Source: Marsupella aquatica (Eukaryota > Plantae > Marchantiophyta). Taken from it: a DNA stretch of 64,000 nucleotides. The stretch is from assembly GCA_973895155.1 (NCBI GenBank), contig OZ316892.1:1254917-1318916 (forward strand), given 5' to 3'. The translations under genes and the position numbers were made by a program. The number at the start of each line of letters is the position of its first letter. The stretch's first letter is position 1. Positions 3,534-50,345 of the stretch are shown piece after piece. A model generated the notes under the pieces. The model did no database searches. It was not told the origin of the DNA and saw only the letters and a program-made list of their open reading frames with translations.

Positions 3534-3657
3534 AAACAAACCCACAAACAAATAGTCATCTAAACATACCATATGGAAACAAACTATAAACAAGTAGCCA
3601 TCTAAACATACCAAGATAAAACAAACCCATAAACAAATGGTCATCTAAACATATCAA
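3534..3657. repeat. About 3 copies of a ~43-bp tandem repeat (aaacaaacccacaaacaaatagtcatctaaacatacc...)
   Basis: Three imperfect adjacent copies visible by eye. Confidence 0.7.
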
Positions 3658-4697
3658 AGCGCCTAGACTTTGCACCTGGCCACCCCAGTGTGAAAACAAG
3701 ATTTGCCTTATGGTCAATAGACCAGACTCAAAGGAGTTGTCAAATGTTAGGTATTGAATGAGGGCACCTTCAGAAGGGATAAGAATGTGTTTGTGGATTA
3801 CTCCTGACCTTGATTCTCGGGGGGGTCATTTCCATGGAAGTGACATATCATGTGCGACAAAGTCTAGGGCCATTTAAATGGTTTTGGCGGAAGACTTATT
3901 AAGTCTTCAATGGAAACATAGGGTTGTTTAATTGCAAAATGCATATATGTCATCACATGATTGGTGTCGTACAACTTTATAGAAAGTGGCTTAGAGGGGT
4001 CATAAATGACCCAAACCATTGCACGTGATGTATGACCCTTCATATAGTGACCCCCCCCCCCCCCCCAAGCCTTGATTGTAAGGACTTTGTCTGACCCAGA
4101 GTAGTTACAAAGATTAGCTACAAAACAATGAGCAGCTCTCATTTGCTTCCAATTCACATAGTGGATGCCCAGGATTGCACACAATTATGCAAAGGCCCAC
4201 TATTGCCACTATTGGTGGCCCACAAGTTTTGCCCTCTCACCGGGCCTCTCACACCCTCCTTATTATGGCCCCTCGGACACTACCTACCACATTACTCTCA
4301 GTTATGAATTCAATCTAACATTTTAATTACTACATACCCCCATGGCAAACTCCTTCCAAAAATCCTGGAAGCATCTGGAAAGACATGAACACTATTAGTC
4401 ACAAGCAAGAATGGTTAGTTATGCAAAAAGAACCACACATGACTATTGGCATGTTTGAGGCAAGGCAAAGAAAAACAGTTAGACCCCTTAACTCTAAAAA
4501 CTATGGAAAACTGAAAAGTCAAACTTCAAATATTCAACAAGTAGATTGATTCAAAAGGGGTGAAAGAAAATAACATTTGGATGGGTTGTGATTGATATAT
4601 CAATGTTTTTTGGTAAAATGTTTAAATATTGTATTTAATTGACAAAAAATTTTAAGAACCATAAGTAGAACAAAACTCTTCAATTGGGTCTTCAATT

Positions 4698-4872
4698 ACT
4701 GTAACATTTACCAAGGAAAGCTACTATGGCTAGAGGAGTAACAAGACAGCGTAAAATACCCTTCAACTTCATTGTTGTCACTGTAACATTTACCACGGTA
4801 ATGTAAGAAACCTTTTGACTACTAGGGATAGAGGAGTAACAAAAGTGTCAATGTAAAAAACCCTTCAACTTC
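4698..4872. repeat. Imperfect local direct duplication (actgtaacatttacca...tagaggagtaaca...cccttcaacttc)
   Basis: Two related copies starting at about 4698 and 4780. Confidence 0.6.
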
Positions 4873-6290
4873 CGTTTTTGCCTACTCACCAATGTTTTTT
4901 GTCGCAGTTTGATCGGCCAAAAACCTATCCCTGTGTCTGTGCCTCACCCTTGCCCTCTATGCCTCACTATTAGTGACTCACCCTCTCTAACAGTGTAAGG
5001 TACAGACATTGAGCTCCTTTTCCATAAAATACTACAGTAATATTTTCATTTGTTTTGGATTTCTAGACACATAGCATAAGTTGGCTGTCAGTAAGTGCCT
5101 TAACTAAAAATACTTGGGCAATTCAATTAGAGGGGTATAACAACTTTCAGTCACAGAAAGTACAAAAGGGTGAACATAAGACACATTTTAACTTGAAAAA
5201 TGTCAAAGGAAAAATAGCACTTGAGAAAGTCAGGTGGGTTAGCCATATAGGAGTAAGAAAAAAACTCCTCATCTTGGAGGCACAGGTCAATGGCAAAGCA
5301 GGGGGTGGAGGATGGCAAGATGGATTTTGGCTGGTTGAGGTTCAGAAGAAACTTCCCTTTACATCTATGGGCAGCAATTGAATCCCTCCTCCCAATTTTG
5401 CATTTGTTAGCAGACTACACCCAGAAATCAATGGAATGGCTTATTACAGTGTTTGACAAATGATCAATGTTAGGTGGGTTGACAATTTTCCCACCTCTAC
5501 ATTCACCAGTTCAACTCACTCACAAAACAAAGAGAAAGAAAAAAACCAGCTGGCAGTTGACCAGGGATGAGAATAGAACCAAGAGGACCCAGGCTCAATC
5601 CCCCCTCCACACGCAAGGGGTATGAAGGGTATGTGTGTGTATGTCTGAGTGGAGTGTGGTGGTGGGAGTCCTGGCTTCTCCTCAGCCCCTGGCTCTCCCG
5701 CTTTGGGGCCCTGCAGGTTCAACCTTCTCTCCCTCGTGGTCTGGGTCTATGTCGGATCCCTGGGTATTGTCCACCCTTGTAGGTTACCCTACACTGGTGC
5801 ATGCTCCAAAGAAAAAAGTCTATGGTTACCTTACACTCGTGCACTCCAAAGTAGAAAGTCTATCCTCTATTGGAGAGGTCTACTTTAGACTTTCAAACGT
5901 CAAAAAAAATACTTTCGACTTTCAAGGTAAAAAAACAATACTTTCAAGGTCAAAAACAATGAAAAAAAAACACTACGATTCACTCACAAAACAAAGGGGA
6001 AAAAAAAAACAGTTCTCGGTCACAAACTACACAGAAAACAACAGTGTCCTGGATCATGCAGGCGCTCACAAAAGGCTAGCGGGGGTGGGCCAGCGGATGG
6101 GCAGGCTCGTGTGGGGCCTCACGCAGCTATGGATTCCCTTCTCGGTGTGCCCACCTGAGCATTACCTGAGCATTTACCTGAGCTCACTCAACGAAGCTCA
6201 GATTCTTCAAGTCGGTAAAACTGTACTCCTTCGCACTGCTTAGCTCGGCTCAGCTCAAACCGGTTCAATTGTACTCAATCAGAAAAAATT

Positions 6291-6420
6291 GAGCTCTGCT
6301 GAGCTCAGTGAAACTCATCAGCCGCAATCCACAAACATGACGACCCGATGAAATTGTACTCTGAGAATTTCCGAGCTCTGCTGAGCTCAGTGAAACTCAT
6401 CAGCAGCAATCCACAAACAT
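6291..6420. repeat. Direct duplication of ~48 bp (gagctctgctgagctcagtgaaactcatcag...caatccacaaacat)
   Basis: Near-identical copies at about 6291-6338 and 6373-6420. Confidence 0.75.
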
Positions 6421-7504
6421 CATGGAAGTTCTGAAGATACGGTAGTATCGTGAAGGGTCACAGGGGTACAGTACTGTACTGTACTGTACTGTACCTATTC
6501 TCGCAGGTGGTCTTCATAGCCGAAAGGTGGGAAGCGGACTTTTGGCCTGGTTGGTTAAATTGGTTTGTCCGTCCGTGGTCAATCTTTTGCTGTCGTCTGG
6601 TTGCTCGGAAAGGAAGAATTTCACATTTTCACTCGTGGGTTGTTTGGACTTTCGAATACGCGCAAGTTGCCCTGCTGCCCAAGTGGGAGCTCGCTGAGCT
6701 GAGAAGCGGTGACTGTTGTTCTGCTGGCTGGGCTGGGCTGGGCTGGGCCGGCCTGTGCTGTGCTCCGTGGGACCAATGTGTGCCCTCCTCTTTTCCCCTC
6801 TCTTCCCATTCTCCTGATTCTTCTTCGGGGCCTGCCCAGCTTCTTCATTGGTGGGTGGTTCGGATGAGAGTTTGTTTGTTCCGGATCTTGGACAGGATTG
6901 AGATTCTGCGGTGATAGATAAGGCTTTTCATATTACATGAAAAAGACTATGCTGCTGGTTGCGGCGGTGGAGGAGAGGAAAAATAAGGAGCAGGGGATGA
7001 GTGAGGGGAGGGGACGTTTGATCATTCCTATAATCGTTCGGTCCGGTCTTTGTGACGGACACCCTCGTCGAGATTGCGAACGGGGAATTTGAATCTGGGA
7101 TACATACACTGGTCGCAGGATTCTAGATGTTGATTTGAAGTGGATTCGTATGCTGAGGAAACCTGAAAAGAGTGAGTGAATTTTGTTACTTTCTCTTTCG
7201 TGCTTCTAAAATTGATTTCCCAGGCAAAAGAGAGATGGTGAATTCGCGGAGGCCGACAGACATAGGATCGATATACTGGGAATTGTAGACGTGTGATGAG
7301 CTGGAGAACAAAATCTAAACGATATGGGATGGTAATGAACAGCTCGCAGGTTAGCGGGGCGCTACGGGAGCTGTCCCGGGACTAGAAAGGAAAGTCATCA
7401 TCCACAGAATTTCGACCTAGGGAAGAATTCCTTTGGATCGGCAAGCTCAAAACCGAGAGTGTGCGAGAGCTGCCGGATCTTCGTGCTTCATTCTGCCTTC
7501 GGCG

Positions 7505-15079: not shown

Positions 15080-16318
15080 TTAGCGTTCCAGTTTTGAATG
15101 AGAAGCTCCAGCAGGTGCCATTGGCGTCGGATAGCCGCCAGAAAATCCTGGAGATCCCGGTGCTCCCCCTGCGACTTGAGAGAAGACGTATGGGATAGAG
15201 GTTGGGAAATGAGACTGGTTCGTGTTTGGAACTCCAGAAGGTGACCTAGGAGATGAAGACTCTTTGTTCTGCGAAGGAGAAAAGGGCGATGGCGATGGCG
15301 ATGGCTGTCCAGAAGCCGAAGCATTGGGCGGCATCCCGGTGGCAGGATCCCGCGCATTTTTATCTTTATGGTACTCTTCCTGAAAAATCTCACCCAACTC
15401 CTTCAACCCTTTTGCACGAGCTCGAAGTACATCCTTGTTGCCATTGGGATCTGCCAACACCTTCTGGCAAACATGTGCGAGGGTTGCCTCAATGTCTACA
15501 ACATTCAATTTCCAAAGAGACCCCAGCATAAGCTCCTGCTTCGATTCCATATACTTCTCCAATTCTGATTCTGAAAGTTGGCCCCCACTTGCCTCCAGTT
15601 GACGTTTCATATCGTCCTGAATTTGCATTAATTGCACGACACCTGCTGCAGCAGTGACCTGGGATCTGACGTAGTGCCCTTTATCACGAACCCACTCTGC
15701 AAGGAAAGGAACACCCAAAAGTTGTTTCTTCCCAAGCTCTTTTGCACCCTGTCTTACATAGATACTGCCAATTGTGTAGAGCATGGGCCCTCCAAATGCT
15801 CCACCAGAAAGACGGTCGGCTTCTTTATGAGCCCAGTCCTTAAACCTAACTTTGTCTCCATCCACCCAAGGTTGGAGTCGTTCAATCAGTACCTTCACCA
15901 GCTTATCTTCGCGCTCATTTTGAATATCTTTCATCATCTGCTGCATCATCCGCATATCCAACGCCTGCCCATCAGATCCAATGTCAAGAGATGCCATAGC
16001 TGCCATCTTCAGCTGGCCAATATAATCCTCAAAAAGCTCACTCCCAAAGACCATTCCGAACACAGAGGCTGCGTCCATCATCCCGTCCTCCGAAACCGCA
16101 GTCTTCCCATATTTATCATACGCGTCCCTCTGCTTTGGATCACTAAGAACCTGGTAGGCCTCTCCGAGCACCTGAAAATTATGTGCTGCGTCTGGGTCGT
16201 TAGGGTTTTTGTCCGGATGCACCTTTCTCGCTTTTACGTAATACGCCTTCTTGATGTCAGCAGCTGAAGCATCTGGCGGTACCCCAAGCACTTCATAGTA
16301 GTGATTCTCCTTCACCAT
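15080..16318 (-). CDS. DnaJ-domain protein with DnaJ-X domain (plant DnaJ10-like / yeast CAJ1-Djp1-like), intronless CDS
   Basis: [13 protein letters not shown]...[10 protein letters not shown]-domain with HPD motif, followed by X-domain sequence ([17 protein letters not shown]...[13 protein letters not shown]). The first ATG in the ORF is at 16318. Confidence 0.93.
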
Positions 16319-17720: not shown

Positions 17721-18427
17721 TGCATGATGGCTATGGGCCATAAAATAATGTTCATAACTTTTTCACAAGGTTAGGTACAAGTGTTTTTTTCCTCACTAGC
17801 CTCTACAGCTGATCATAGCATACCTCCAATCTTCATGGCAAAAAGTTATTGACCATTACTGGATTTATGTGTCCGTAACACATAAGTACCGAGTTAAAGG
17901 TTCATCAAATTTGAGAAGTTCTATTGGTTCTCTTCCATAAGTACAGAGTTAAAAGTCCTTCAAATTTTGAGCTTTCAAATGCACTATTGGGTCTTGGCTT
18001 GTCTTCAAGTGGGGTGCTTTTGTTCCTTGGCAGTGTTCTTGGGACGTTGTTGAAAGTTATGCATTTGTGGTCCATCTTGTAACTCGGGTTATGGGACATA
18101 GTTAAGGAATTTAAGAAATGCCGGGATGTAGCATTGAGTCGCCCCATAAGGAAGGAATTACAGCCTCACCTCTCTCTCATAACATATCTCATTTTCCCTT
18201 TATTCTTGATCAACTACCACCTCAAATGCAACAGTAATCACCATGTAACACACAAAGCCCATGTGCCTTCAATTGTGTGGGTTTATGGAGTTGGGGCATC
18301 CTGGATTTCCAGATTTCTGCCTAAAGTTGCAGGTTAATGTCTAGAGCCCGCAGGCTTGCCTTACTCTAGTCAAAGATAAGCTCCCATATTTTTACAAACA
18401 TTCTGTAATACTTGAGTTACAGAAAGG

Positions 18428-18790
18428 TGTCATGACCATACGTAGCGTGCTAGACTATGTAGTGTGCTAGCAGAGTCCATACCTTAGATGGGCCGTAGTG
18501 CCTAGTTAGGAGTCTGGTTCCATGGTAGAGGGTTAGAGGGGGTGCCTTGTTGAGGGTGAATCCTCTAGTAGGACCCGCCCTCAGGGTTGGAGGGTATAGT
18601 GTGGAGAGGCTCAAAGGACGGTTAGTTCTTTGAGTTGAGCCTTTGGCGTTGAGAGAGCCTTGGTAGTGAGTGGAGCTCCTTGGCTATGGTGTCCCGTTAG
18701 CTTCGACCTAGATTCTCCAGTGGAGTGGGTTTGGCTTGACTGTGTGTGTTCTTACGCGTTTTTATGACAGTATGTCTTTCATGGATTTCA
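18428..18790 (+). repeat. Split direct repeat A1 (363 bp)
   Basis: Matches 27919-28242 apart from a 38-bp deletion in A2, about 7 substitutions and three small indels. Confidence 0.95.
18595..18634 (+). promoter_or_regulatory. Putative element promoter: TATA-like TATAGT at 18595 and inferred TSS/self-primer AGTTCTTTGAG at 18624-18634
   Basis: The 11-mer starts 29 nt downstream of the TATA-like motif and is the exact reverse complement of 18791-18801. Confidence 0.6.
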
Positions 18791-18801
18791 CTCAAAGAAC
18801 T
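18791..18801 (+). other. Putative self-priming primer-binding site (CTCAAAGAACT)
   Basis: Abuts the 3' end of A1; perfectly complementary to 18624-18634; no TGG-type tRNA PBS is present here. Confidence 0.75.
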
Positions 18802-21800
18802 CGTAGTGATCGATTGTAACTTCGATCAGAGATCAGTAGGATCTGGTAGGCTGTTTGATAGCATCAGCCGTGGATACATTGTGGTTCGTGGATCTGGTGC
18901 GTGTATGGGTGGGGAAGAAGCGCGTTGCTGAGAGCTTTCCAACGCACTAAAGATCGCCTGGTTTGGTCGAGCGAGTTGGAAGTAATCAAAGAATGAAGAA
19001 TCTGGTTCGTGTTCGACGGTTTTTTAGATTTGGAAAGCTTGAGTGCGGAAGCTCTGTTGGAAGTCATCCAGATCGGGTGAGAGGTTTCTGATGTTGATCC
19101 TTGTCTGATTCGCAACATCAATTCAATCGTGTAGAACTATTTAGCTCTAGTGTGTGGAGCGAATTGTTGTTTAGAGAGGGACCGTTGCAGATTTTTGTAT
19201 TGATGAATCTATGCGGAAGCGCTGCCGGATTTCAATGCGTTGGTAGTAGATCTGGATGACAGAGTGCAGATCTGTGTTGTGTGATCAGTGGCGCGAAAGC
19301 GCTATCCTAGTTGTGGCTCATAGATCGTGAGCGAAAGCGCTGTGCAACTTCAGAAATGTATAGGCCGAAATGTTGTCCGATTTTTAGCTTGAAGTACAGA
19401 CCTCAGTTGTAGTTGATTTCTTGTGGAGAGATAGCTATGGTGGCCAATTGAATTCTGGTCCAGACAGATTCATTTTCCGCCGAGGATTCATGGAGTAATC
19501 AGAGATCTAAATTTTGCGGACTAGCTCAAGGCCTGGCTATGGTGGATAGCGAACCTGCATGTTGGGGGCGCTTTTCTCGTAGCGTAGCATGGCGGAGCGA
19601 GTCGGGGCGAAAGGGGCATGTCTCGAGCATTTCTTGGCGTTTTGAGGCTTCGAGGCAACTCGTGGTAGCTCGGGGCGAGTGGGCGTGAGAGGCGGAGAAA
19701 AGGAGCAAGCTTGCTTGCTTGGGCGTGAGATAGTTTTGCAGATTTGTGAGTAGTTCTGTGAGTATTGTGTTGCATAACTGGTCACCCATCTTTGCACTAT
19801 TCTGCCTGCAAGACGCTTAACTGGCAGGTTTGCATTTTGCTAGTGTATAGACTGCCTTAGAGGAATTGGTGTAATATTTGGACGTTTTCCCCCATATATG
19901 CATCGTTTTAGGTTGCGTTAGGACCCATTTTGGGATTCCTAGCGGATGGTGGTGGATAGCGTTTCCATGTAGGTGACATTATCAAGTGCTGGGAGTGCGA
20001 GGAGCACGTCATAGACTACTAGCGGAGTAGCTACATTGCGTTAGGATTGTGTGGTTTGTTTTGTGGATTCAAGGGGCGCCACGGTTGGTGGATTGTGTTA
20101 ACTTGATTTATGTTTTGTATTTCATTTGCGATTGGAGGGTTGTCGTTGGACTTCCTGTGTTTGGATCCCCTCCATTGCTGCTTCTTGCTTGCGCGCCCAT
20201 TGTTAGGGCTGACGCTGATTTCCGAAGTAGTTTTACTCCAGTGTGCTGTCGGTAGTGAGGCTGGAGTGATGACCAATCAGACTACCTATGTTTCTCTCAC
20301 GGTGAGACTGGAGTAATGACCAGTAGACCATGGGAGGTTGCTTGTGGTGATGACAGGTTAGGTTGCCCACACCCATGTAGCTATTAGGGCTAGAGTAATA
20401 CGGCGACATCGACGTTACTTGGTTAATTAGTGGTGGTGATTTGGTGGTGGTGCTATTGCGGCTTGTCATCATGGAGCAGTTTGGTGGTCCTGTTGGGGAC
20501 CTTGGTGCTGACACTGGTGGTTTTACACGGAGTGGATTGAGGTATCGGCTACCTTTTCCACTACCATTAGTTGATGAGGACGAGGACGAGGGTGTCCCAG
20601 ACATCAAGTCTTCAGTTGTATTGTCCAGTATAGCAGCCCCATTGATTTGGGATATGGACGGGATGTACGGGGCCATGAAGGGCCCACAATGTTACTCAAG
20701 GGCAGTGGGCACCATTGAGTTGGAGGACTTCATTCAGGAGTTTGATACATGGTGTGATATGTAGATGTTGTGTAACGCCACGTTATTTACACCTTTCTTG
20801 GCATGGAAGGGGTTGTTTCAGTACTTGGAGGGGCCTCCCATGGATGATTATCATGAGTTCCGGAAGGATCATGCTATTGAGATTGAGGCATGGAGACAAC
20901 ATTGGTCTCCAACCTATGTGTCTATCACTCAGGGTGGTGTTGGTACTAGTGGAGGCACTAGTGGAGGTGCTAGTGGAGGCACCAGTGGAGGCACTAGTGG
21001 GGGCACTAGCGCTCCACCTTCGTTCAGCCCAGTTACAGAGTTCTTCAAGAGGTTGAAGAAGAACTACCAGGGGGTGAAGACAGAGAAGTTGAGGAGTCTT
21101 CAGGATTTTGAGAGAAAGACTGGTGAGAGTCTTCATGAGGCATACACTCGTATGCGGCGTTTGATTTCAGTTACCCAGGGTGTGACCGAGGCACAGGCTG
21201 TCCAGTTCTGGTATGGGATTTTGGACAAAGAGTTGCGGAGGAGGGTACGTGATGCTACTCTGATGAGTGATGATCCACCCACGTTGTCCCGTGTGTTTGT
21301 TTTGGCTGAGAAGATTGAGCTTAACATGGTGGAGGAGAGGGTAGTGACATCTGCATTCAGTAGGGATACAGCCACTACTTCTCGTGTTCAGCCAGCCACT
21401 TTACAGTCTCGTAGTAGTGGTGGTGGTGGTAGTAGTGGGAGTCGTGGAGGTTCGGCACGACCTCAGTTAGGTTCCAGAGGGACGAGTGTGCAGAGACCAT
21501 TGCCTTCATATGCTGCCCAGCAGCAAGGACCAGTGTGTTGGACATGTGGAGGTGATCATGTCCGGAGGGTTTGTCCCCAGGAGAGTGGGGGACGGAGTTT
21601 AGAGGATGGATCTCAGTCAGCCCAGGTGCAGTGTGATCATTGTGGTCAAGCAGGTCATCCTCGAGACCGTTGTTTTGACCTATACCCAGAGTTGAGGATG
21701 GGTGGTCGAGGTCGTGGTGGAGCACCTCAGAGAGGCCGAGGTGGTGGAGGTGGTAGAGGTGGTAGGGGTGGTAGAGGTCCACCAGCAGTTGGAGCGCCTA

Positions 21801-23311
21801 TAGTGGCTGCCCCTCCCCCTACGACAGAGGCTGCTATGGCGGCTAGGATTGAGTAGTTGGAGCAGAGACTTGCTACTATGGCTGGTATTCCACCTCGAGC
21901 AGGTTCGGGAGCAGGGGCTTCCACGTCTTATGGGGGGGATGATCTCTCTTATATGGCAAGTGCGGCACAAGTTGAGGCATCAGTTGCATTGATGAGAGGT
22001 GCAACTAGAGCTTCAGAGCCACGTGGTGCCACTATGGAGTTGGACCCACAGAGGGGTGAGGCTGGGAGGCAGGCTAGGCTTCCCCAGTCATTCTTGTTGT
22101 CAGAGGTGCTTAGGACTCCATCCATGGTTCCTATGAGACTTGTTGAGCCAATAGTGGATACAAGGGCATCTACATCACGTGTAGTAGACACAGATATAGC
22201 CTCTAGTGCAGTGTTGCGGATGGCAACCTCAGTATTAGGATCCTCATTGTTTTCAGCAACTGAGTTGATGGCCTCAGGAGTTGACATGACTCGTGTATTT
22301 CAGCTAGCTAGCACGTTGTGTGAACGTGGGAGTGTTGCTGGCACTACGAGTGCTGAGGTGTGTGAGGGTGTTGTTGTTGAGCAACCCTTAGTGTCAGATG
22401 TTGCATCAAGTACCGATGCTACTTGGCAGGCGGCAGCGGCGAGGATGGATGCATTACCAGCCCGACCAGCCATTGATCGTGAGAGGCTTACACTTGGAGT
22501 ATGTATGTTGGACAACCGGACTGGTGTCTTTCAATTGGTGAGTCCTTCAGGACAGGTGTATAGACCAGAGAGGGTGTTGTTGGACTCTGGTGCCCAACCC
22601 TTGATGTTGGGGAAGGCAGATTGTATTGGTTTGGGTATTCAGAGGTCAGAGTTGGAGCCATGCCCATTCCAGATTCAGACATCACTTGGAGGAGCCAGTG
22701 ATAGGTCTCACTTCATGACACGGGAGAGGGTGTCAGTGTAGATGAGGCCAGATCATGCGACTGATAGCTCTACATTAGGAGTGACTGTTGTGGTGACATC
22801 AGTAGAGTCGTATGATGTACTAGTTGGAGGTGCAGTGTTGTACCCGGTGGGTTTTCAGATGGACTATTGGACTGAGACAGCAGCCTTTAGACCTGGTTGG
22901 CAGTCTGGTGATGGACGTTTGAGCCAGGTGCCTGTGAGGTTGATTTCTGGGGTTAGACCAGGAGGGACTTCCCCAGAGGTATTGGCATTAGTTGCTGGTT
23001 TTAGTGGAGTGGTCACTTGGCCAGGTGATTTGTTGGAGGGTAACCTCTTAGCCGTGGATTCTCTAGTCTATGAGGAGGTAGAGGAGGTCTTTAGTTTGGC
23101 GGCAGTGGTACCCTCCTTTTTGGATGTTCCACTTTGGAGTTCAAGTGGAGTGTTGAGGCAGAAGGCTGATCATTTGATATCACGGGCTTGGAGTACACCC
23201 TTTGTACGTGTGGAGGTAGAGGAGGCTCCAAGACGAGCTCCTACTGGTGGTCCAGTGGGGTTGTCTCCTTTGGATACAACACCCATTGTTTGGGAGTATC
23301 CACCAGAGGGT

Positions 23312-24260
23312 ATTTGTGTGTTGGACCTCGTTGGTGGGATTAGCACTGATTTGGCTGTAGTGTTGCAGGCCGGGATACCTATGAGGAAGTATTTGTATGT
23401 GGAGAGAGATGAGACCGCGAGGAGGGTTTCATCACGACATCTTGCATTGTTGATGCAGAGATACCCTGAGTTGTTGTCACAATCCGCAATTCGGGGGTAT
23501 CAACGGAGTTTGCCATCAGACATTTCATTGTTGGGGGCGCAAGACCTTGAGAGAGTTGGCCCTATTGATTTGGTGATTGTTGGATGGCCATGTCAGGGAC
23601 ATACTCGGGCTGGTCATAGTGGAGGGTTACGTGACCCTCGTTCTCATATATTTTGGGAGATGTTGCGGGTGTTGCGTCATCTTCAAGTGCATCAGGCACG
23701 TGCTCCAGCTTACATTCTGGAGAATGTCCCTTTGTTGGGTGATACTAGATCTCATGTGATCACGGCTACACATGAGGTACGGTCATGGATTGGGCCAGTT
23801 GTTTTGTTGGATGCAGCGAGGGTGGGCTCGCGTGCACATCATCCACGGTTGTGGTGGACGAACTTGTTACCCAGGGAGCTTTTGAGGCGCGCCTATGATG
23901 CAATCCAACGGCCGCTATCTCTCATCGTGGATAGTATTTTGGATGGTGGACGACGTTCTCAGGTGGTGAGAGCAATGGATAGGTCACCCATGGCAATAGT
24001 GAACCTTGTGGGGCACTCAGCCTAGAATGGCTTTGCCTACATTTGTGAGTTTTCCCTCGTCACATGCCTATAGGGATGGTGGTCCTGGGCTTGTATGGGA
24101 TTCTCATGTGCACCAGTTGGTGGAGCCCAACGCTGATGAGAGAGAGCGTGCTATGGGGTTTCCTACCGGTGTGACATTAGTCTCTTCAGTTTCAGAGGCA
24201 TCACGTCTCTAGGTGTTGGGTCAGGCTATGGACCTGAACTGTTTGACGTGGATTGTGAGC
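23312..24260 (+). other. DNMT3-like C5 cytosine DNA methyltransferase domain within Pol
   Basis: Motifs in canonical order: I VLDLVGGISTDL, II YVERD, III DI, IV DLVIVGWPCQ (PC at 23588-23593), VI YILENV (23720), VIII LDAARVGSRAHHPRLWWTNL, IX ERERAMGFPTGVT, X RL*VLGQAM. Confidence 0.9.
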
Positions 24261-27200
24261 CTTGCAATGGCCGAGCAGCGGAGACTTAGGACCATGTCTA
24301 TGGTTACTTTACCCCTGGTGATGAGCTCGTTGCCTTCCGGGACGGTAGAGGCATCGGCTGGGGGCGAGGAGAGTGGTAGTTTGCATCCTTGGAGTACATG
24401 GGATGTGATGGATGGGCATGTAGAGTTGGTGGCCCATGTTGGTGGAGGAGTTGTTTGCTCAAATGATGGTGTAAAGGAGCATGTGCCATTGTCTAAGGAG
24501 GTGGCATAGCAACCAATGGCGTCGTCCTCTTCCTCTAGTGTACTGGTAGAGGAGACTTGGGAGCCATCACTTGGACCCAAGCTGACAGGAGGTGAATGAC
24601 GATGGTTGACACAATTCCTACGTGCTTATAGGAGTTGTTTTGCCTTTAGCATGAAGGAGTTGGGTGCTTTGGTTGGACCTGGTATACGGATTGATTTGGC
24701 TAGTGATACAGCAATCTTTCGTCGTCCCTACAAATATAGTGATATGGAGAGGGACTTGATTCGGAGTAAGACGTTGGACCTTTGGAGGCTGGATTAGTGG
24801 AGTTGTTGCATGGGGAGTATGCGTCAGCCACTATCATGCCTGCCAAAAAGAATGTGCATGGCAACTACACAGAGAGGCGGATGTGTGGAGATTACCGTCC
24901 TATCAATCGGCAGACAAAGGCCGATAGGTATGCCATGCCCACACCTGAGGAGATCTTTGATGTGGTGGGACATGCAAGGATTTTCAGTACTTTGGATCTT
25001 CGGGAAGGATACCATCAGTTGCCAATTCGAGTGAGTGACAAGGCCAAGATAACATTTTGGGGAGTCAACTCATATGGCAAGGATTGTTTGTATCAGTGGC
25101 GATTCTTACCCTTTGGGTTGAAGAATGCACCTGCCGAGTTTCAGAGAGTGATGGACAGGATCCTAGTAGGATTGGATTTTGTTCGGTGTTACATTGATGA
25201 TATCTTGGTGTTCAGTGATACTGTGGAGGAGCACCAACAACATTTGCAGATTGTGTTTGAGCGATTGAAAGCTCATGGTCTACGTTTACATCCAGGAAAG
25301 TGTAGGTTCTTCCATGAGGATGTTGAGTACTTGGGTCATGTGATCTACCCAAGTGGTTTGGAGGTCCAACAGGCAAAGGTTGAGGCTATTGCACGTATCC
25401 CTTGGCCGACAGATGTGAGTAGAGTTCGGGCATTCATGGGATTGGCGAACTACTATCGGCGATATGTGAAGGGATTTAGTGCTATAGCAAAGCCTTTGAA
25501 CAAGTTGTAGAAGTCTGATCAGGAGTGGCAGTGGGGAGATGACCAGGAGAGAGCTTTTATGGAGCTCAAGACCAAGTTGGTGTCTGCGCCTATCTTGAGG
25601 AGACCTATCAGGGGTTGCCCATTTCAACTGCACACTAATTGGAGTATGTTGGGGATTGGAGTGGTGTTGACACAACATGATGATGAGAACAAGGAGTTTG
25701 TGGTGGCCTATGCAAGTCGTTCAAACAATGCAGCAGAATCAAGCTATGGTTCGTACGAGGGAGAGTGCTTGGCAGCAGTGTGGGTTGTGGCACACTTCAG
25801 GTGTTACTTGTTTGGCACAGAGTTTACCCTTGTTACTGATCACCAATCGCTCAAGTGGTTGATGGAGTCTGATAAGCTTACAGGAAAGCTTGCACGGTGG
25901 GCTCTTATCTTACAGGAGTATGACTTTCAGGTGGTACATAGACCTGGAGTTACCAACCTTGATGCTGATGGGTTGAGTAGGAACCCATGTCCTAGTCAGG
26001 AGGATGATACTGGAGCTAGATGGCATGGAGAGGTTGATGAGGAGATGGTGCCAGGATGGCATGCATCTGCCTTTTTGTGTTTGTTGGGTGTGAACTCTAG
26101 TATGGAGGATCACCTTACACCTTCCTCTAGTCAGAGGGTAGATGGCCAGCCTGCAGATCCGGAGGTTGGAGATGGTGCTACAGATCAGCATGATATTCAT
26201 GATGATGCGTTGGTGTTAGAGTTCCTACAGACCAGTAGGGTGCCAGGCATAGTGAGTGCCAAGGAGCGAGACCGTGTTCTCCAACGGGCTAGGAGGTACT
26301 GATTGGAGGAAACACATGTCCTCCGTGTGTGGGAGGATGGTAGAGTACGAGTGGTACCCCATATAGCTCAGAGAGAGCGCATTGTGCGACATGCTCATGA
26401 GGAGTTGGGATATTTTGGAGTAAAGCGTACGTATAACTTACTTCTTGGTCAATATTGGTGGCGTGGCATGCACACTCAGGTGAAACAGTTGGTGTCACAT
26501 TGTATGGTTTGCGATCGGGTGAGGGCATTGTTCAATGCCCCTACACCACAGTTACACCCCTTACCTATTATGGGGTTGGGTTACCGTTGGAGTTTGGACT
26601 TTGCAGGACCATTACCGTTAACTAGGCGGCATCATCGGTATGTGTTGGTGATGGTGGAGCACTTTTCTAAGTGGATTGAGTTGGTGGCATTACCTGACAA
26701 GGCAAGTGAGGGAACAGCGTATGCATTTCTTGATAGAGTGCTTAGTCATTTTGGTGCACCAGCGGAGGTGTTGACCGACCAGGGTATGGAGTTTCAGGGT
26801 GAGTTTCAGGTCTTGTGTGACAAGGCGTTGATTGATCACCGGACCACATCTCGAGATCATCCAGAGGCGGATGGTTTGGCAGAGCGTGTTGTTCAGACGG
26901 TGAAGAGGGGATTGCACAAGTATGGCCTACAGAAGGGGCATCTTGGAGATTGGGACATTCAGTTGCCATGGTTAGCCATGGGGTATAGGTTCAGTCGTCA
27001 AGCATCCTTGGCTTCCTTCTCACCTTATTTTCTGTTGTACGGCCGAGACCCAAACTTGCCCACAGCAATTCGTCGAGATTCTAGTGAGGTGGTGAACCTT
27101 GATGACCCGGAGGTGTGGCTGAGGGTGTGTTCTCAAAGGGCACAGCTCTTTCAGAGAGTTATGCCAACAGCCTTGGAGAACCTTGCCATTGCTCAACACA

Positions 27201-27493
27201 GAGATACGTTGCGTTATGCAACCATCCGGGGTGGAGGTTATCGACCATCCATTCATAGGTTCCATGTGGGGGACTATGTCTATTTGCAGCAGACTGCACT
27301 GACAACGTTGGATGTGGCGGCAGGACGCACTATCTTACGTGTGAGAGAGGTGTTGGCTTCTGGAGTTCTCATGTTGGAGGGTCGTGATGGTGTTGTTTGG
27401 AAGGACCATGTTCGTAATTGTGCGCCATGTCACCTCCCAAACGTGGATGGTACAGTGGACCCCAGCTTGGCAGTGATACGTGCTAGCTTGAGG

Positions 27494-27628
27494 TGCATGT
27501 TGTGTGAGTCTGCTAGTGAAGCAGCCCGTATGTTGGTTTGTGATAGGTGTTCTAGGGGTTGGCATATGTCATGCTTAACTCCACCTGTTGATGTTGTGCC
27601 TACTGGACGGTGGGTTTGTCCTCGGTGT
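27494..27628 (+). other. PHD finger (C4HC3) at the integrase C-terminus
   Basis: CMLC...MLVCDRC SRGWHMSCLTPPVDVVPTGRWVCPRC matches the PHD consensus. Confidence 0.92.
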
Positions 27629-27795
27629 ACTTAGGAGGTGGATGACTTGATCTTCACATGGTATGGATTGCAGATGGGCAATTAACGATGGGGCAACATA
27701 GCACCCGGCTTTCTGATCCGTGCACCCACAAAGGTGTATAGCATGTAGTAGATGGATAGGGCTACCTGGGAGTTAGAGGGACCTAACCGCCAGTT

Positions 27796-27805
27796 AGGGG
27801 GGCGA
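27796..27805 (+). other. Putative polypurine tract (AGGGGGGCGA) immediately 5' of repeat B1
   Basis: Purine-rich run abutting B1; no such tract precedes A2. Confidence 0.6.
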
Positions 27806-27916
27806 GTTGCGGTACACTGTCTTGTATTTGTGTATGCTCTTGTCCATGTTATGCATGTATGTGAGTATGGCATGACCAGCGATGCATGTTGTATGACGAT
27901 GTGGATTCGCACGACA
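27806..27916 (+). repeat. Split direct repeat B1 (111 bp)
   Basis: Differs from 28243-28353 at 3 positions. Confidence 0.95.
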
Positions 27917-27918
27917 GC

Positions 27919-28242
27919 TATCATGACCATACGTAGCGTGCTAGACTATGTAGTGTGCTAGCAGAGTCCATACCTTAGATGGGCCGTAGTGCCTAGTTAG
28001 GAGTCTGGTTCCATGGTAGAGGGTTAGAGGGGGTGCCCTGTTGAGGGTATAGTGTGGAGAGGCTCAAAGGACGGTTAGTTCTTTGAGTTGAGCCTTTGGC
28101 GTTGGAAGAGCCTTGGTAGTGAGTGGAGCTCCTTGGCTATGGTGTCCCGTTAGCTTCGACCTAGATTCTCCATTGTGGAGTGGGTTTGGCTTGACTATGT
28201 GTGTTCTTACGTGTTTTATGACTGTATGTCTCATGGATTTCA
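27919..28242 (+). repeat. Split direct repeat A2 (324 bp)
   Basis: Copy of 18428-18790; begins TATCATG (A1 has TGTCATG); separated from B1 by a 2-bp GC spacer. Confidence 0.95.
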
Positions 28243-28353
28243 GTTGCGGTACACTCTCTTGTATTTGTGTATGCTCTTGTCCATGTTATGCATGTATGTG
28301 AGTATGGCATGACCAGCGATGTATGTTGTATGATGATGTGGATTCGCACGACA
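28243..28353 (+). repeat. Split direct repeat B2 (111 bp), right terminus of the element
   Basis: Copy of 27806-27916; ends CACGACA followed by the AAGG duplication. Confidence 0.95.
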
Positions 28354-29109
28354 AAGGCTTTACCTGGTTGGAAATCCCAGGAACAAAAACCCAGTTTTCT
28401 GCTGAGTAGGGTCTTTGTTTTTCTTTAATTTCCTTTGTGGGCTATTAGTGGTCTTCTGGGGTTGAAGGGGACTCTGGCTTGTGGAGCCTCTTTGGTCTTG
28501 TAGGGGTCTCTCCCTCGTTTTTTTTCCTCCCTTGATTGGGTGTTTTGCCTTTGAGACCCTTTCCAGCTTGGCGCTTTTGTTCTTTGGCAGTTTGATATGT
28601 ATTAAACTTACCTATCTGCAAATGGCAAGCTGGTATAGCTCTGGCGCGAACTATATAGTTCGCGCCACGCACAGGAACTTGACTAGAAGCCCTAAATTAA
28701 ACAGATTATTTCTAATAAGAAAAATGGAAAGGGAGATGAATTACTTCCAATCAAGAAGCGGAGAGAGGGATGGGGGACTATAGGTACAACAGCAGACTGA
28801 CAAGGAATCGAGGAAAGAACAAATGAATCAACCAAACAAGGAAGTTGAGAGAAGGGGAGATGAAGGGGGTTTACTATTGTATTTTGCACATGTGGCACTC
28901 AATGCAAGATAATAAGCCTCTACTTGTGACCATTAGATATGTATGGTCAAATCTGGAACGTTGTTTTTTGCTGAATTAGTCATCTAAAAACGTTTTTAAA
29001 ACCTGTTGTATCATTCACAAGCCCTGGTAGCAAACTTGCAAAACTTTGCAGTAAAAGGAAACACTAGAGGGGAGGGGAGAGATGGGAGCTTTTTATCTTT
29101 TGCCAGGGT

Positions 29110-34677: not shown

Positions 34678-36586
34678 CAATTTACAATTCAACACAAAAT
34701 TACAGGATAGATAAGAATCCATCAAAGTACAGTTAATTTTCTCTTCCTGTATGTGCTGCCAATAAGTGCAAATCTGGTTTATTGCAAGAAATTGAGTTTT
34801 TATAAGTGTTTTGAAGTTGTCACCATATGACAAAAACATAAGTGCAATCTCTTTATGTACTGTATGCTGCTTGTCCTTACATGTCAAAGATTTTTCATAG
34901 TGTATGAGCCTGAATGCCCTTTCTTTGAATGACAAAAGAGATCTTGACCAAATTAAGCATGCATCATCATTTTGACATACAATACATCCCATCCTCTCCA
35001 TCCACACACATTTGGTGGGGTCCTACAGTTAAGGTCTAGGGGGTTCACTTTAGAAACCTAGACCCCAATTGTTGCTTTTGTTCGTGAATTAGTGCTAAGA
35101 TCTGTTGCACTTATGGGTGAGGCAACAGGGTTTAGGGAGGCTATTGTACAGTCCAGAGGCAGTTGCAACAGTTGAGGAATGTTGTGCCCCCAGTTGTGTT
35201 GATATTTTGGCCTGCCATCTGTTTACGCTGGATCCCTTTATGATGTTTGTGAGCATCTTGCTCTTGATTTAATTCCTGGATGGTGTTTTTCCATTTCCAA
35301 CCCAAAGTCCACAGATGCAAAATTTTCTAGCATCTAAAGCCTACAGATGCAATCTTTTAAGCGCAAATGAACCCTTAAGTTTTAAATATGGAAAAATACA
35401 AATTGTAAATGATGCACCACATACAATGCTATAAGTGTGGGGCTTGTGCTTCTTCCCAGAGTTGGACAAAGGGACCTAATGCAATTCAATAACGCTGTTA
35501 ACAATAACTATTGTTACTCACACTAATTGTGGTGAAACATGTTGTTTTGGCTTACTCATGTATTGCCTGAATTTTGCAAAAAATGAATCATGCATTTTAA
35601 ACTATTAGTTTTGGCCCAATATAATGGAAAGAAGGTGGGTGCACCCCAGGTTTGCATGAAAATCGTTGGCTCTAGCATTATTAAGTGCACTGGTACCACT
35701 AATTAGATGCTAACAATAATAGACGACGGCTGGTATTTCTATAAAAAATTCTCCGAACTACCAACGCTATTCATCAAAATTAGTATACCATCCAATCCAA
35801 TAAGCAATAGTATACGGAGTAGCTTTTTCATAATTGTGTGCGGTAGACTACCAATAAGTGTCTCACCGCCTGATTGCCACGCAGGGCCCACGCGTAAGGC
35901 CTTGGTTCGTCGAGGATGCCACGAGTCACTCTTTCCGACAGCGCGACGAGCGCAGCGATGATGCCGGTCCGAAATGAACGGTGTCCGAAGTCGCAGTCAC
36001 GCGACAAAACACTGACGGCTTGGATCATACAATTCCATTATTGAGTCTCAAAAACCGTTAGATCTTATCCCTTTGAACGGTCGAGGAGGAGACCGTCAGG
36101 TCGCGTCGACTGTGGTGTTCCCTCTGCTCTCATTGCCGAAGCTCTTCATTTGGAGATGAAATTGCTGCGAGATCAATTTCTGGTTGTTCCGCTCCTCGGC
36201 TTCTTGAACAGCTCGTCACCCGGCTTCCGTTAGATTCGCTCGCCCGTTGCACCTCCTCGCGAAACTATTTCATTTGTGAGGACGAGCAAGTAGGGTTCGA
36301 ATTGGGCCCAAATCACTCGTCGCTTCTGTCCAGGAGAAACATTAATTCTGTTGTGAGGACGAGCAAGTTGGGTTCGAGTTGTGCCCAAATTACTCTTCGC
36401 ATCGGTACAGGAGAAAGATTTGGTATCCCGTCACCCGGCGTTCGTCCCAATCTTTGTTAGTTCGCATCTTTTCACGAGTTTAATTGCGTTGCCTCTCCGG
36501 TTACGTAGAGCAGCTAGATTGCGTCGAATCGTGCCCAAATTTCTGTTTGAATCTAGAGACTAGAAAGGTTTTGGTGCGAAGTGTGG

Positions 36587-39699: not shown

Positions 39700-39940
39700 A
39701 CCCGTGCAACCGGTCGCCGCTTGGGTAAGTGACGAGCCCCATCCCTTCAACCGGTCTTCGCTCGGTTGAGTTTGACGATCCCCATCCCTTCAACCGGTCT
39801 TCGCTCGGGTGAGTTTGACGGTCCCCGTCCTTTCAACCGGTCGCTGCTCGGGTGCGTTTGACGATCCCCATCCCTTCAACCGGTCGCCGCTCGGGTGCGT
39901 TTTGACGATCCCCATCCCTTTAAACTGGTCACCGGCCCGG
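39700..39940. repeat. ~43-bp tandem repeat, about 5-6 copies, upstream of the UBX gene
   Basis: Unit cccatcccttcaaccggtc(t/g)(t/c)cgctcgggtgagtttgacgatc at about 39738, 39781, 39824, 39866 and 39911, with a degenerate copy at about 39700. Confidence 0.9.
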
Positions 39941-44469: not shown

Positions 44470-44595
44470 CTGACTTGTCACTGAGTTTATGACTTATCCA
44501 GACAGAAGCTGGGTAACTTGTCACTGAATTTATAACTTCTCCAAACAGAAGCTGGGTAACTTGTCAATGAATTTATAACTTCTCCAAACAGAAGC
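44470..44595. repeat. ~43-bp tandem repeat, about 3 copies (acttgtcactgaatttataacttctccaaacagaagctgggta)
   Basis: Two near-identical copies plus one degenerate copy. Confidence 0.8.
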
Positions 44596-47500
44596 ACTTG
44601 GTAACGGTTGGTAGCAAGGTGACAAATCTCCATATAGCAAAGTGATATACCTTGCACTCTTTCCATTTGATGAAGACTCTCCCATGGTTTGATACTTTCT
44701 TGGATTGCACATTCACAATCTGCAATAGATATACTCAATCTGCCTTTGACAGCTGACAAAAGATTGATGGAGCTTACTCTTTTAGGTACTTTTGAGTAAA
44801 TGTTGATGGCATAGGATTCAGCAACCCAATTTCTTGTCCTCAAGCTTAAAGTCATCAGTCACTCTGAATGGCTTTCTTCCAAAATTGCAACTCTTCTTTG
44901 AATGAGAACAATTGGAGCGTCTTGTCAAGTTTCCCATATGCCTTGCTTGATTGCTTTGGAGTCTGTTTCCTTAGTGACGGCGCTTGGAAAGTAATACAGT
45001 TTGAATCTGTCTTCATCATCTTTTCACACAAGCAAGCCTCAAGGTGTAATGCCCAGCATGCTCGCCACTTGTGTCCAAGGGATCTATAAATGCCTTGAGA
45101 ACGCACCGGGAGTTGTTGTGATGACTACCTCGGGTAATCGGAACCAACGGCAAACATATTCTGGAGCTCACTCTCAAACTCCTTTATGTTGAATTTCCTT
45201 TTTCAAGTTACAACATCCCTTGAGTAGGCCACTAGTGAGAGTCTGGTCACTGGTCCTACGGCGGGCCACTACCTATCTCTCATCAAACTCACTACCCCTG
45301 GAGTAGCTCTCACATCATAAATCCACTGAAAAACCTACCTCCTCAAGCTCTCAATCTCTCATACGCAAAACTCTATCTCAACCTCAAACCTACTAGCCCT
45401 AAGCACTAGTAAGCTAAATCCAAGTCCTACTCATAATCAGGAACCAAGGAATTCTCTTCTCCAAAACACAGAAACTACTATATTCCATCCGCCATAATGC
45501 ATAATACCCCTCCTTATTGAGCCAAAGCTCTCTTATAGTCCTCAGGTAGCACCACTCTTGTATGTCGATTCAGCACTTGCCTCTAACCAGCAATGAGTAT
45601 CTAGTCGGTCCTTCTTTGTTTCCAGTTGTTGGGTCAAAATGGTTCGGCACGACAACTTGCTTGGGATTGATTGTGGACTATTCAATACAACACAGAAACA
45701 ATAATGGATCTTCCTGATGTACATATCATGAGGAAAGTAGTAGGGTCACCTCTAACCCCTGCTGTTAAAATGGTCTTTATCCTACTCCTAATGGGTGAAT
45801 CAACAAAGCATAGACCCCGAGTACTATCTAGGCTGATGATAACTTAAGTAAATTGTTTGGGTAAGACAATGATTGGCAACAGGTCAAGTTGGCTAGGACT
45901 ATATTAATTCTAGCAACCCTCAAACCGGGTTGCTGGTCTCTGCCCTCATAGATCACTTGAGGAATGTCTTCGTTGGGAGTGGATGGCCAGTAGCAGTAAT
46001 CAAACTGATCAAATCATCTATATAACACCAACCAGCTTCCTTTGTAGCACAATTTATTGTCATAGGTAATGGGCAGAGTTAGCCCTTTGTGTACATAAAT
46101 CTTCTTGTATTGTGTGGACTGGTGTCATCTGGATGTTTTGGACCAGTTATCTGAGATGGTGCAATTTCACAGAACCTGAGAAATAATTTTCACTTGGTTT
46201 TCAATATTTGGTGAAAACAGTACAGGACCATGCAGTTGTTTGACAACATTGCTATACATGGAACCAGACATTCATTGTTGGTTGAGTCTATGACATGTGC
46301 AAAACTGACCAGATCCAATTCAGAAACACTACTCGTTTTCCTTTACAATGATCCTTTGCATTCAGTGGAAAACTGAAATTCAGCTGTGATCCTCCATAAA
46401 CGTTAGTTTGGACACTCGCAACTCAAACGTAGACCAGCAGCACTCTATGGCATGATAAATTACTCAAGGTATACTTCAACCTAATAAACAGATCTTGAGA
46501 GTTTAAAATGGCAATTGAATTGCTCTTTCTACAAACGACCACAAGCCTGTATAGCAAAGTTACTATAACATGGCTGGCCTGGTTCTGACTCTCAAGTATT
46601 TGTGCTCAAATGTATCTAATTAATAAAGTACCATATTAATGTAACAATGTATTCGAGTATGTTGCAAGCGAGGAGATGTATCACGCTCCGGGAACGTGAG
46701 ATCCTGTGGTTACAGCTTGCGGCAGCCTCACATCTAAAGATGGTGAAACAAATGGAGAATTTTGTAATTTGTGCAATAGGCTGTGAAGCCTCATGTGAAC
46801 CTCTATGAAGTTTTTGATATAAGCAACCTTTGGAAGCTTTATTTTCTTCTCCATGGTTAGTATGAATGCGAAGAGCTCTTGTGCAACCTGGACAGGACTT
46901 TGTTGGTCATTGTAGTGAATCTAATAAGTTTTGTACACTTCACTCTCCAACAATGGATATCACTATTCCAGTTGCCAATTCCATTAGTGTTCTGTGTACG
47001 TGCGCCATTCTTTACAGTTTGAGATGGTCTTTTGGTACGATCAATTTGATCTCTTGGCGCTGAAATTGCAACTGTTGAACAAGCCAGCACCTTGATCCTT
47101 GAGCTTTCATATACTAAAGTTCAAATTATAGGTTTTCTAGTTTAACTTGCAGCCACCGCATAGGAGTTTTGATCATATCTACTTATCTGGTTCCTGCCTG
47201 ATCTATTTCTTGCAGGACCAACTTGTCATAATTTTCTCCATATAATACTTGTATTCATTGCTTTCTTTGTGAGATTCAACCAGCTTCCTAGACTCTGCGG
47301 ACTAGACACGAAGATATGTGATTCAGCTCAACTAAGGCTATGTCCATTGGACTACACAAAAGCTTTACTGCACTCTAGGCCCGTTGGCCATACCGAGTCT
47401 TTGCAATACAAGTTTTCTTTATCTGTCAACTGGCTACGTGACAATGAGAACAAGTTACTTGTATCCAAACAATTCAAACACTCCTTGAGTATATAGTGCG

Positions 47501-49235: not shown

Positions 49236-49610
49236 AAATTGTTGACAGAAAACTGTAATAATCCTTGAAAATTAGGCCGAACCAGTAATGTTGGTTCCGT
49301 CCTCTGACTTCTCTGCGGCCTCACTTTCTTGGAAATGCGACTAGCCGTTCAACTTGTTGTACTGTTCCATAATTTGAAACAATCCTCGTACTCCACTTTC
49401 AAACGATCGAGAACCAGAGCTCTCCTGCCGCTGGGTTGGCCTGGCCTGCCTCGCTAGCCCAGCTACAGAGCACACAGCTACAGAGCCCACACACTGCATC
49501 TTTCGGACCCCGAAGTCCAGGATCGCGTGCATTTCCCTCAAGATGCTCCTTCATTGCGCTTTGCCACTCAATGCGTGCCCATTTAGGAAACCGTAAATGT
49601 GATTTCTGTA

Positions 49611-49719
49611 CAGTATTGGGTAGAGCTTGATGAGCTTGATGAGCTTGATGTTCGAGACTCGAACCTCGAGACAGTATTGGGTAGAGCTTGATGAGCTTGA
49701 TGAGCTTGAGGTTCGAGAC
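49611..49719. repeat. Direct duplication containing (GAGCTTGAT)n in the kinesin upstream/5' UTR region
   Basis: cagtattgggtagagcttgatgagcttgatgagcttga.gttcgagac occurs at 49611 and 49672. Confidence 0.85.
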
Positions 49720-50345
49720 CCGAAACTCGAGAGTGAGGAAGTTGTCTCTCATCACTCGTGCGCGCTTTGGGGGATGTTCTTTCGAGAAAGATTTAGTCTC
49801 TCTTGGGCACAGATTTCTAGACGAGATTAATGGGTAGACTGTGTCTGTAGCGCGGACAACGACCTCACTTCACTGGATCATTCCAACATGAGCGTAATTT
49901 TGGCCATTTCAGTCGACGAAGTAGCTTCCTTCCTGGTTTCAGAGCCGGGGCTTTGAAGGCCCAGGGGTTGGTTCGATGAACTCCGTGAATTTTCCATGAT
50001 CAACTCTTCAGCTAGTGGCGTGCTTTCATTTACCGCACCAGGCGGGCAGTATGTCTCGATAGCAGAATGATGTAAGAGCAGCGTTTTATGGGTGTTCCTC
50101 ACGTAGAGAATTGGGAGTTCTCACGTCAGTATGTCCCATGGAAAGATTGAGACAGCTGACGGAGGTCGAAACATCAGTCAATTGAGTGTAATATTCCCGG
50201 CTCTTGGGCGTCAGGCAGCAACAAGAAAGGAATCCGTAACTGCAGCACATCACTATCGTGCTTTTTCTTGAAAGCTCTCCAGATTGCTTCTAGACGCTGT
50301 GACGGATTGCAGTTCAGGTCCCTTCTCCATAAGGAGAGAAACGGA

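Follow-up and report, generated by a model that had tools for sequence, protein, structure and literature searches.

The accessible text of de Mendoza et al. (2018; PMC5890265) reports retrotransposons bearing a Dnmt3-type cytosine methyltransferase (DNMT) in Symbiodinium and Klebsormidium nitens only, and retrotransposon DNMTs are given as those of "streptophytes and dinoflagellates" in the available part of a further paper (PMC12344493). KnitGypsy-Dnmt3, from K. nitens, carries an intronless, non-permuted Dnmt3-like domain in its Gypsy coding region, in the frame of the reverse transcriptase (RT), with repeats arranged A-coding-B-A-B (Fig. 4 legend, PMC5890265). SymbioDIRS-Dnmt3, from Symbiodinium, likewise has a Dnmt3-like domain in Pol and split direct repeats, together with a tyrosine recombinase and a DIRS-type RT (PMC5890265). 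Self-priming by a 5′ RNA segment has been described for Tf1/Sushi elements and for the moss Tcn1 chromoviruses (PMC6317226, PMC4600332). What role methyltransferases play for the retrotransposons that carry them has stayed an open question since 2018, the known hosts being difficult to study.

The element described here lies in a 64,000-nt stretch of the Marsupella aquatica genome (the window), where it occupies 9,926 bp (18428-28353) between intron-bearing eukaryotic genes (CDC48, a kinase, DnaJ and UBA/FAF1). It is of Ty3 type, with the domain order Gag, zinc knuckle, protease (PR), DNMT, RT, RNase H (RH), integrase (IN) and PHD finger. Below, designations beginning with L denote loci or contigs and those beginning with P denote proteins. 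The coding features, all on the forward strand (+), are as follows.

20654..21682 (+): capsid-like region of Gag, with zinc knuckles; Marchantia P0126 at 70-76% identity, weak PF03732 match (E 0.011), stop at 20762
22502..22948 (+): aspartic protease, LLDSGAQ at 22577; Pfam aspartyl protease found on the relatives P0254 and P0194; stop at 22739
23312..24287 (+): DNMT3-like C5-cytosine methyltransferase, motifs I-X; Pfam and PDB matches, motif map, fold
24507..24515 (+): conserved in-frame stop then CAA, end of ORF1; 23/23 aligned loci, L129 and gene-model ends
24770..25507 (+): reverse transcriptase, YIDD at 25190; PF00078, E 2.3e-31
25511..25930 (+): RNase H; PF17917, E 3.2e-34
26303..27430 (+): DDE integrase (H2C2 and rve); PF17921, E 8.6e-15, and PF00665, E 3.2e-14
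27494..27628 (+): C-terminal PHD finger of the integrase; PF00628, E 1.8e-10; same place in 12/43 loci

The protease piece of the window itself had no Pfam match, and the integrase has no chromodomain, the PHD finger standing in its place. PHD fingers also follow the integrase in many algal members of the family, and in the Hariotina protein P0157 a weak Tudor-like match (residues 2505-2560, E 0.0016) comes after the integrase. A 1.7-kb leader (18802-20490) extends from the primer-binding site to Gag, and its ORFs are without Pfam match.

The Gag-PR-RT-RH-IN order, the TG..CA ends and the target duplication place the element in Ty3/Gypsy. Two complete terminal LTRs are not present, and the repeats follow a split A...B-A-B layout instead; LTR finders that ask for a complete pair of LTRs will overlook the family. 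Despite the split direct repeats shared with SymbioDIRS-Dnmt3, a DIRS order (PAT/Ngaro type) was rejected, given the element's DDE integrase and its 4-bp target duplications, and no tyrosine recombinase was matched in the eight main ORF pieces and six smaller ORFs of the element. Troyka elements share the Ty3-like domain order and DDE integrase, but are described in the available text as having CG..CG ends, 3-bp duplications, plain LTRs, a distribution in animals only and no methyltransferase (PMC12440569); membership was rejected on the TG..CA ends and 4-bp duplication found here. With the Tf1/Sushi and Tcn1 elements the window element has in common a predicted self-priming primer-binding site (PBS) as well as the Ty3 domain order (PMC6317226, PMC4600332), whereas it differs in having a PHD finger rather than a chromodomain, an added DNMT, and LTRs that are split where theirs are plain.

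The closest likeness is to KnitGypsy-Dnmt3. Both have, within Gypsy coding sequence, a Dnmt3-like domain that is intronless and non-permuted, and they share the A-coding-B-A-B arrangement, found both in the window element and in the related locus L012. The hosts differ, being land plants here and an alga there. We infer that K. nitens KFL_013780020 (P0254), which has the same knuckle-protease-DNMT order as the window and falls in the same family, is one KnitGypsy-Dnmt3 element. Target duplications, self-priming, a PHD finger and a circle model do not appear in the text on KnitGypsy-Dnmt3, figures and main supplement aside (PMC5890265). The window element represents a land-plant branch of the KnitGypsy-Dnmt3 kind, one that widens its range and adds features. 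No report of the element in bryophytes or chlorophytes was found in the literature, although the supplementary figures of PMC12344493 could hold bryophyte sequences. The words "Marchantia," "Sphagnum" and "PHD" are absent from the three supplements of PMC5890265 that were searched, and the name "KnitGypsy" occurred in one paper only, in a searched literature that excludes most subscription papers, Repbase and theses.

The sequence-only reading of this locus had recognized motifs I-X in non-permuted order, an intact catalytic PCQ and ENV, and a DNMT3-like rather than DRM-like enzyme, and each of these is borne out. The motifs map as follows.

23318-23350 (+): motif I, VLDLVGGISTD
23390-23410 (+): motif II
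23576-23599 (+): motif IV, GWPCQG
23714-23728 (+): motif VI, ILENV
23834-23863 (+): motif VIII, AHHPRLWWTN
24138-24161 (+): motif IX, ERERAMGF
24216-24233 (+): motif X, LGQAMD

The PF00145 profile check proposed at that stage gave E 4.9e-9 and 36.5 bits, above the Pfam cut-off of 22. By motifs and Pfam score the domain is a C5-cytosine methyltransferase, with catalysis predicted. All 29 solved-structure matches of its N-terminal piece were DNMT3A, B or C, and the Pfam and PDB matches together rank DNMT3A above DRM and DRM above HhaI. A natural homologue with 78% identity to the window (P0001) was modeled with a pLDDT of 92.5, replacing an earlier, shallow and poor model (pLDDT 59), and its best structural match was DNMT3A (E 1.8e-19, TM 0.83). 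The motif order, the AHR..W.N type of motif VIII, the ER..G type of motif IX and the fold are those of DNMT3A/B and plant DNMT3; in contrast to these enzymes, that of the element has no PWWP, ADD or other companion domain and no introns, and identity is about 22%. DRM enzymes have circularly permuted motifs. A DRM identity is ruled out by the I to X order and by the lower DRM score on a family profile of 60 sequences (DNMT3A 92 bits, DRM 53, M.HhaI 36, DNMT2 25), and the non-permuted order together with the DNMT3 fold confirms the domain as DNMT3-like.

The same profile gave 84 bits to a Proteus phage enzyme and 98 bits to viral contig L074, and in phmmer searches phage enzymes scored 45-60 bits against 48 for DNMT3A. 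Phage methyltransferases score as high as DNMT3A, and the element DNMT may descend either from a host DNMT3 or from a phage enzyme. The phage-type methyltransferase of L074 (590-1618), which outscores DNMT3A on the family profile, bears on the origins of DNMT3.

The copy in the window is dead, with seven decay stops (20762, 21854, 22739, 24210, 24597, 25508 and 26300) and frameshifts near 24014 and 24780. Three lesions fall in the DNMT: the motif-I change, the frameshift near 24014 and the stop at 24210-24212. The decay of motif I, the frameshift and the stop had all been noted from the sequence alone; all are real, the frameshift being placed near 24014 and the motif-I decay being confined to this copy, since the column holds Phe in 120/120 homologous sequences covering it (29 loci and 91 proteins). 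The motif-I change and the frameshift are absent from contigs of all four related runs, and the stop is absent from three of the four, the fourth lacking cover there. The three lesions are private to this copy. The insertion is fairly young, because its two A repeats differ by only 7 substitutions in 321 aligned nt.

The stop codon at 24507-24509 (TAG here) is of another kind. Among 43 metagenome loci, 23 align across the site, and every one has a stop there (TAG in 13, TAA in 10), any stop lying a few bases or less from the aligned position being counted, with the printed contexts showing one site; CAA follows directly in 22/23. Gene models of Marchantia, Calypogeia and the Sphagnum type end 120-126 residues past motif IX, and the window frame ends at 122. 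The distant copy L129 (DNMT 47%, RT 69% identical) has its only internal stop at that site and is otherwise open. The stop is therefore a family feature and not decay. The leaky-stop motif of tobamoviruses is UAG-CAR-YYA, which the window and L129 fit; the Sphagnum-type CAA-CCC misfits at the last base. ORF1 would thus comprise Gag-PR-DNMT, and RT-RH-IN-PHD would likely be made by read-through of the stop. Placement of the DNMT between protease and RT, as first read, stands, but the domain does not simply belong to a single Pol frame. KnitGypsy-Dnmt3 has its DNMT in the RT frame (PMC5890265), as does the bryophyte branch, with the conserved stop between; the algal P0148, P0190 and P0329 read straight through from DNMT to RT. 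Because the conserved stop separates Gag-PR-DNMT from RT-RH-IN, the DNMT is likely made at the level of Gag.

Homologues comprise 164 near-length and 27 longer sequences, mostly 57-84% identical to the window, from (among those named) Marchantia polymorpha, M. paleacea, Calypogeia fissa and three Sphagnum species. Three M. polymorpha proteins annotated as hypothetical host genes, P0123, P0126 and P0132 (Mp8g17980, Mp4g09160, Mp6g11220), are the Gag-PR-DNMT frame of the element, and in annotations of bryophytes and algae such frames raise or confound the count of DNMT3. Protease lies upstream of the DNMT in 32/43 metagenome loci and RT, RNase H or integrase downstream in 25/43; the remaining loci end too soon or are interrupted, and several loci represent one insertion in two samples. 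A heavily decayed and divergent protease-DNMT relic (L041-L043, about 4700-6530, 30-46% identity) has no RT match downstream.

The view of the DNMT as a recently captured fragment of a host gene, carried as a drifting passenger, has in its favor that each of the 43 metagenome loci is decayed or partial and that close pairs give dN/dS values near 1 (0.9-1.05 in DNMT, PR and RT alike). Such close-pair values are what copies that decay after insertion should show. Between lineages, the median dN/dS (Nei-Gojobori, window against loci) was 0.27 for the DNMT, 0.26 for PR, 0.19 for RT, 0.19 for RNase H and 0.17 for integrase; the DNMT figure covers 37 of the 39 other loci with DNMT pieces, alignments of fewer than 60 codons (two) and under 55% identity being excluded, and comes from dead copies, which inflates it. 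Both this median and the value of below 0.2 reported for KnitGypsy-Dnmt3 (PMC5890265) indicate purifying selection. Stops per 100 codons are no more frequent in the DNMT (1.39) than in PR, RH and IN (1.49-1.63; RT 1.00), and the DNMT is stop-free in L129 and in Marchantia P0126. The presence of the domain from chlorophytes to mosses and the congruence of its trees with those of RT-RH argue against a passenger as well. The dN/dS values, the residues conserved in distant representatives and the congruent trees together refute this explanation, to which we attach a negligible probability. The DNMT is a family trait under purifying selection, and the test proposed at the outset, presence of the domain in other copies and its rate of evolution, came out in favor of a maintained domain.

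Searches with a Gag-PR-DNMT profile, which includes the Gag-PR columns, returned 474 clusters (50% identity, E up to 1e-30), and profile searches recovered intact polyproteins of 2,200-4,700 aa. In K. nitens KFL_013780020 and two Closterium proteins a knuckle or protease precedes the DNMT, and in the chlorophytes Haematococcus lacustris and Hariotina reticulata the DNMT sits between RNase H and integrase. Among 143 new representatives, the DNMT follows RNase H in 68 and precedes RT in 22, 47 show the DNMT only and 6 show none. Trees of the DNMT and of RT-RH recover the same three groups (quick trees, no bootstrap), and the family forms one clade against five phage enzymes (SH-aLRT 100; a quick tree with no host DNMT3 included). 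The window DNMT groups with Sphagnum-type copies (SH-aLRT 89-90), a grouping that the RT-RH tree leaves open, and no resolved sister relation joins the bryophyte branch to that of K. nitens (quick tree, no bootstrap). One capture followed by a later move of the domain would be the simplest reading of the two layouts. The land-plant case anticipated earlier is upheld by homologues at 60-80% identity in Marchantia, Calypogeia and Sphagnum, but a separate land-plant capture is not, the sequences forming one old green-lineage family to which Klebsormidium also belongs. With members from chlorophytes to mosses, what was a curiosity of one alga becomes a large, old lineage.

The bryophyte alignment had no match in a viral collection, where the wide alignment found, among the matches listed, only phage-type enzymes (24-51% over short spans). 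Among the matches listed from a prokaryote scan, one was a true family member (L129) and at least 79 were weak. L129 (1-9285) is a near-intact distant copy filed in a cyanobacterial metagenome-assembled genome, and it is probably mis-binned.

The repeats and signals at the ends of the element are arranged as follows.

18424..18427 (+): left target-site duplication, AAGG; same 4 nt past the right end
18428..18790 (+): repeat A1, TG start, CA end; matches A2, same start in 11 other loci
18624..18634 (+): putative 5′ end of the RNA, and self-primer whose 11 nt complement the PBS; 11/11 pairs, below a TATA-like box
18791..18801 (+): primer-binding site directly 3′ of A1; 95% identity with 10 other copies, which ranks in the top 2% among 11-nt windows
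27796..27805 (+): polypurine tract, ahead of B1 and not of A2; kept in 8 other loci and L129
27806..27916 (+): repeat B1, ends CA; repeat comparison
27910..27925 (+): B/A junction CA-nn-TG, near-palindromic, predicted integrase cut site; spacer comparison
27919..28242 (+): repeat A2; repeat comparison
28243..28353 (+): repeat B2, right element end, ends CA; contigs of three runs exit here into mixed flanks
28354..28357 (+): right target-site duplication, AAGG; matches left copy

The A-body-B-A-B layout is complete in the window and L012 and partial in L008 and L032. TG..CA ends with 4-bp target duplications occur at five insertions: the window, L012, L018, L038 and L010/L011, the last read across two contigs. 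Repeat A1 appears to behave as a 5′ LTR, with a TATA-like box followed by the putative RNA start. A tRNA-type PBS (TGG start) was not found after A1, and priming looks Tf1-like, with an RNA that would start inside A and prime itself. The fold of PBS and self-primer has a z of -2.35 (3/200 shuffles equally good). In 10 other A1 copies, the self-primer pairs at 8-11 of 11 positions in eight and the segment is lost in two; L012 still has the segment in its A2. In L129 the complementary pair at the same positions is a different one, of 12 nt.

Standard LTR reverse transcription from such a primer and polypurine tract would yield B.A-body-B.A. This is a circular permutation of the inserted form, and we therefore infer closure of the DNA into a circle that integrase then opens; the layout is probably best explained by opening at the internal CA-nn-TG. 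The spacer of that junction is GC in the window, L008 and L129, and AT in L012 and L032. A short form, A-body-B, occurs in four of the eight insertions read past B1 (L011, L013, L018 and L038), and may be the expected product of a one-repeat circle, recombination between B1 and B2 or assembly collapse being the alternatives. Two observations count against the circle model. The mirror form, in which a two-repeat circle is cut at the other junction, is absent among 11 left ends, and the A2/B2 joint is identical in three of four copies, with the ragged joint predicted beforehand in one; an exact joint also fits simple inheritance. L129 assembled as a circle with a 127-nt end overlap, which a collapsed repeat would equally give. 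If the circle model is true, the attachment site of a DDE integrase is here the junction of a circle.

For the enzyme itself, our leading proposal, with a probability of roughly 0.6, is that it methylates the element's own new DNA before insertion, having been made together with Gag and released by the protease in the particle. The RNA would start inside A and self-prime in the Tf1 manner, ORF1 (Gag-PR-DNMT) would be made in bulk and RT-RH-IN-PHD supplied by stop read-through, and the element protease would free the DNMT inside the particle. Reverse transcription would then give B.A-body-B.A, to be closed into a circle that the DDE integrase opens by a staggered cut at CA-nn-TG. The free DNA would be longer-lived in such a cycle and would be the most likely DNMT substrate. 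The methyl mark might let the new DNA pass as already-methylated host DNA, or might set the chromatin of the new copy, and the PHD finger is probably a reader of histone H3 at the target. In the published yeast assays, as given in the accessible text, Symbiodinium retrotransposon DNMTs methylate CG (PMC5890265).

In the same assays the Klebsormidium enzyme gave no methylation, which the authors call inconclusive (PMC5890265). Such silence would be expected if the domain acted without catalysis, through DNA binding or base flipping in circle formation or integrase loading, or if it methylated RNA. Motif IV points the same way in that Glu replaces Pro ahead of the catalytic Cys in 71/139 distant representatives. 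About half of the distant members (P0148-P0322) thus read G-W-E-C-Q rather than G-W-P-C-Q (Pro in 56/139), a form of catalytic loop that is unusual among C5 methyltransferases. The Cys itself is present in 139/140 distant representatives, however, and Glu-Asn, Arg-x-Arg and the SAM-binding motif are likewise kept across the family; the fold matches the DNA-acting DNMT3, and DNMT2 scores far lower. We regard a non-catalytic or RNA-directed role as improbable.

A role in the nucleus, where the DNMT would act on chromosomal DNA (target sites, sister copies or competing elements) and tune silencing for the element or the host, deserves more weight than this, although it too is unlikely. Given the conserved stop, DNMT should far outnumber RT and integrase, beyond the need of one cDNA, and the PHD finger points to chromatin. 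Extra CG loss, moreover, is not seen in the element: the CG observed/expected ratio is 0.44, against 0.38 and 0.34 in two neighboring Ty3 fragments without visible DNMT (0.78 in L129). As the element is not lower than these fragments, CG depletion does not discriminate as a mark of self-methylation, and sequence composition lends no support to methylation of the element's own DNA. Mutation in inserted copies is far higher at CG (0.21) and CHG (0.22) than at A/T (0.012); because this fits ordinary host silencing, the DNMT does not spare copies. Against nuclear action, both layouts (behind Gag-protease in streptophytes; in chlorophytes, with RNase H before the domain and integrase after it) keep the DNMT in a particle-bound polyprotein, and the DNMT itself is without a targeting domain.

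Methylation of the element's own DNA before insertion stays the preferred reading. A fuller account, which we put forward tentatively and with less confidence than the enzyme's role itself, would describe a single ancient chlorophyte-charophyte-bryophyte lineage with one DNMT3-type capture, capsid-level packing of the enzyme, methylation of the circle and insertion by a retroviral-type integrase via a cut at the internal palindrome instead of at linear cDNA ends. If true, the family would replicate by a cycle distinct from that of other LTR elements, and one that could be found in a genetic model, Marchantia. The presence of the element in M. polymorpha (Mp4g09160, Mp8g17980) makes these questions testable where genetics and methylation mutants exist.

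Several further features of the window lie outside the element. An intronless gene for a DnaJ and DnaJ-X protein (15080-16318, reverse strand), 2 kb from the element among intron-rich neighbors, is possibly a retrocopy. A 1,295-codon coiled-coil-like open frame without Pfam match (57890-61777) adjoins a tandem duplication (62031-63432) with a period of about 710 nt and 84-93% identity. Short tandem arrays are found at 3539-3665 (42 nt), 36266-36419 (77-nt unit), 39730-39901 (43 nt), 44473-44601 (43 nt) and 49610-49731 (61-nt unit).
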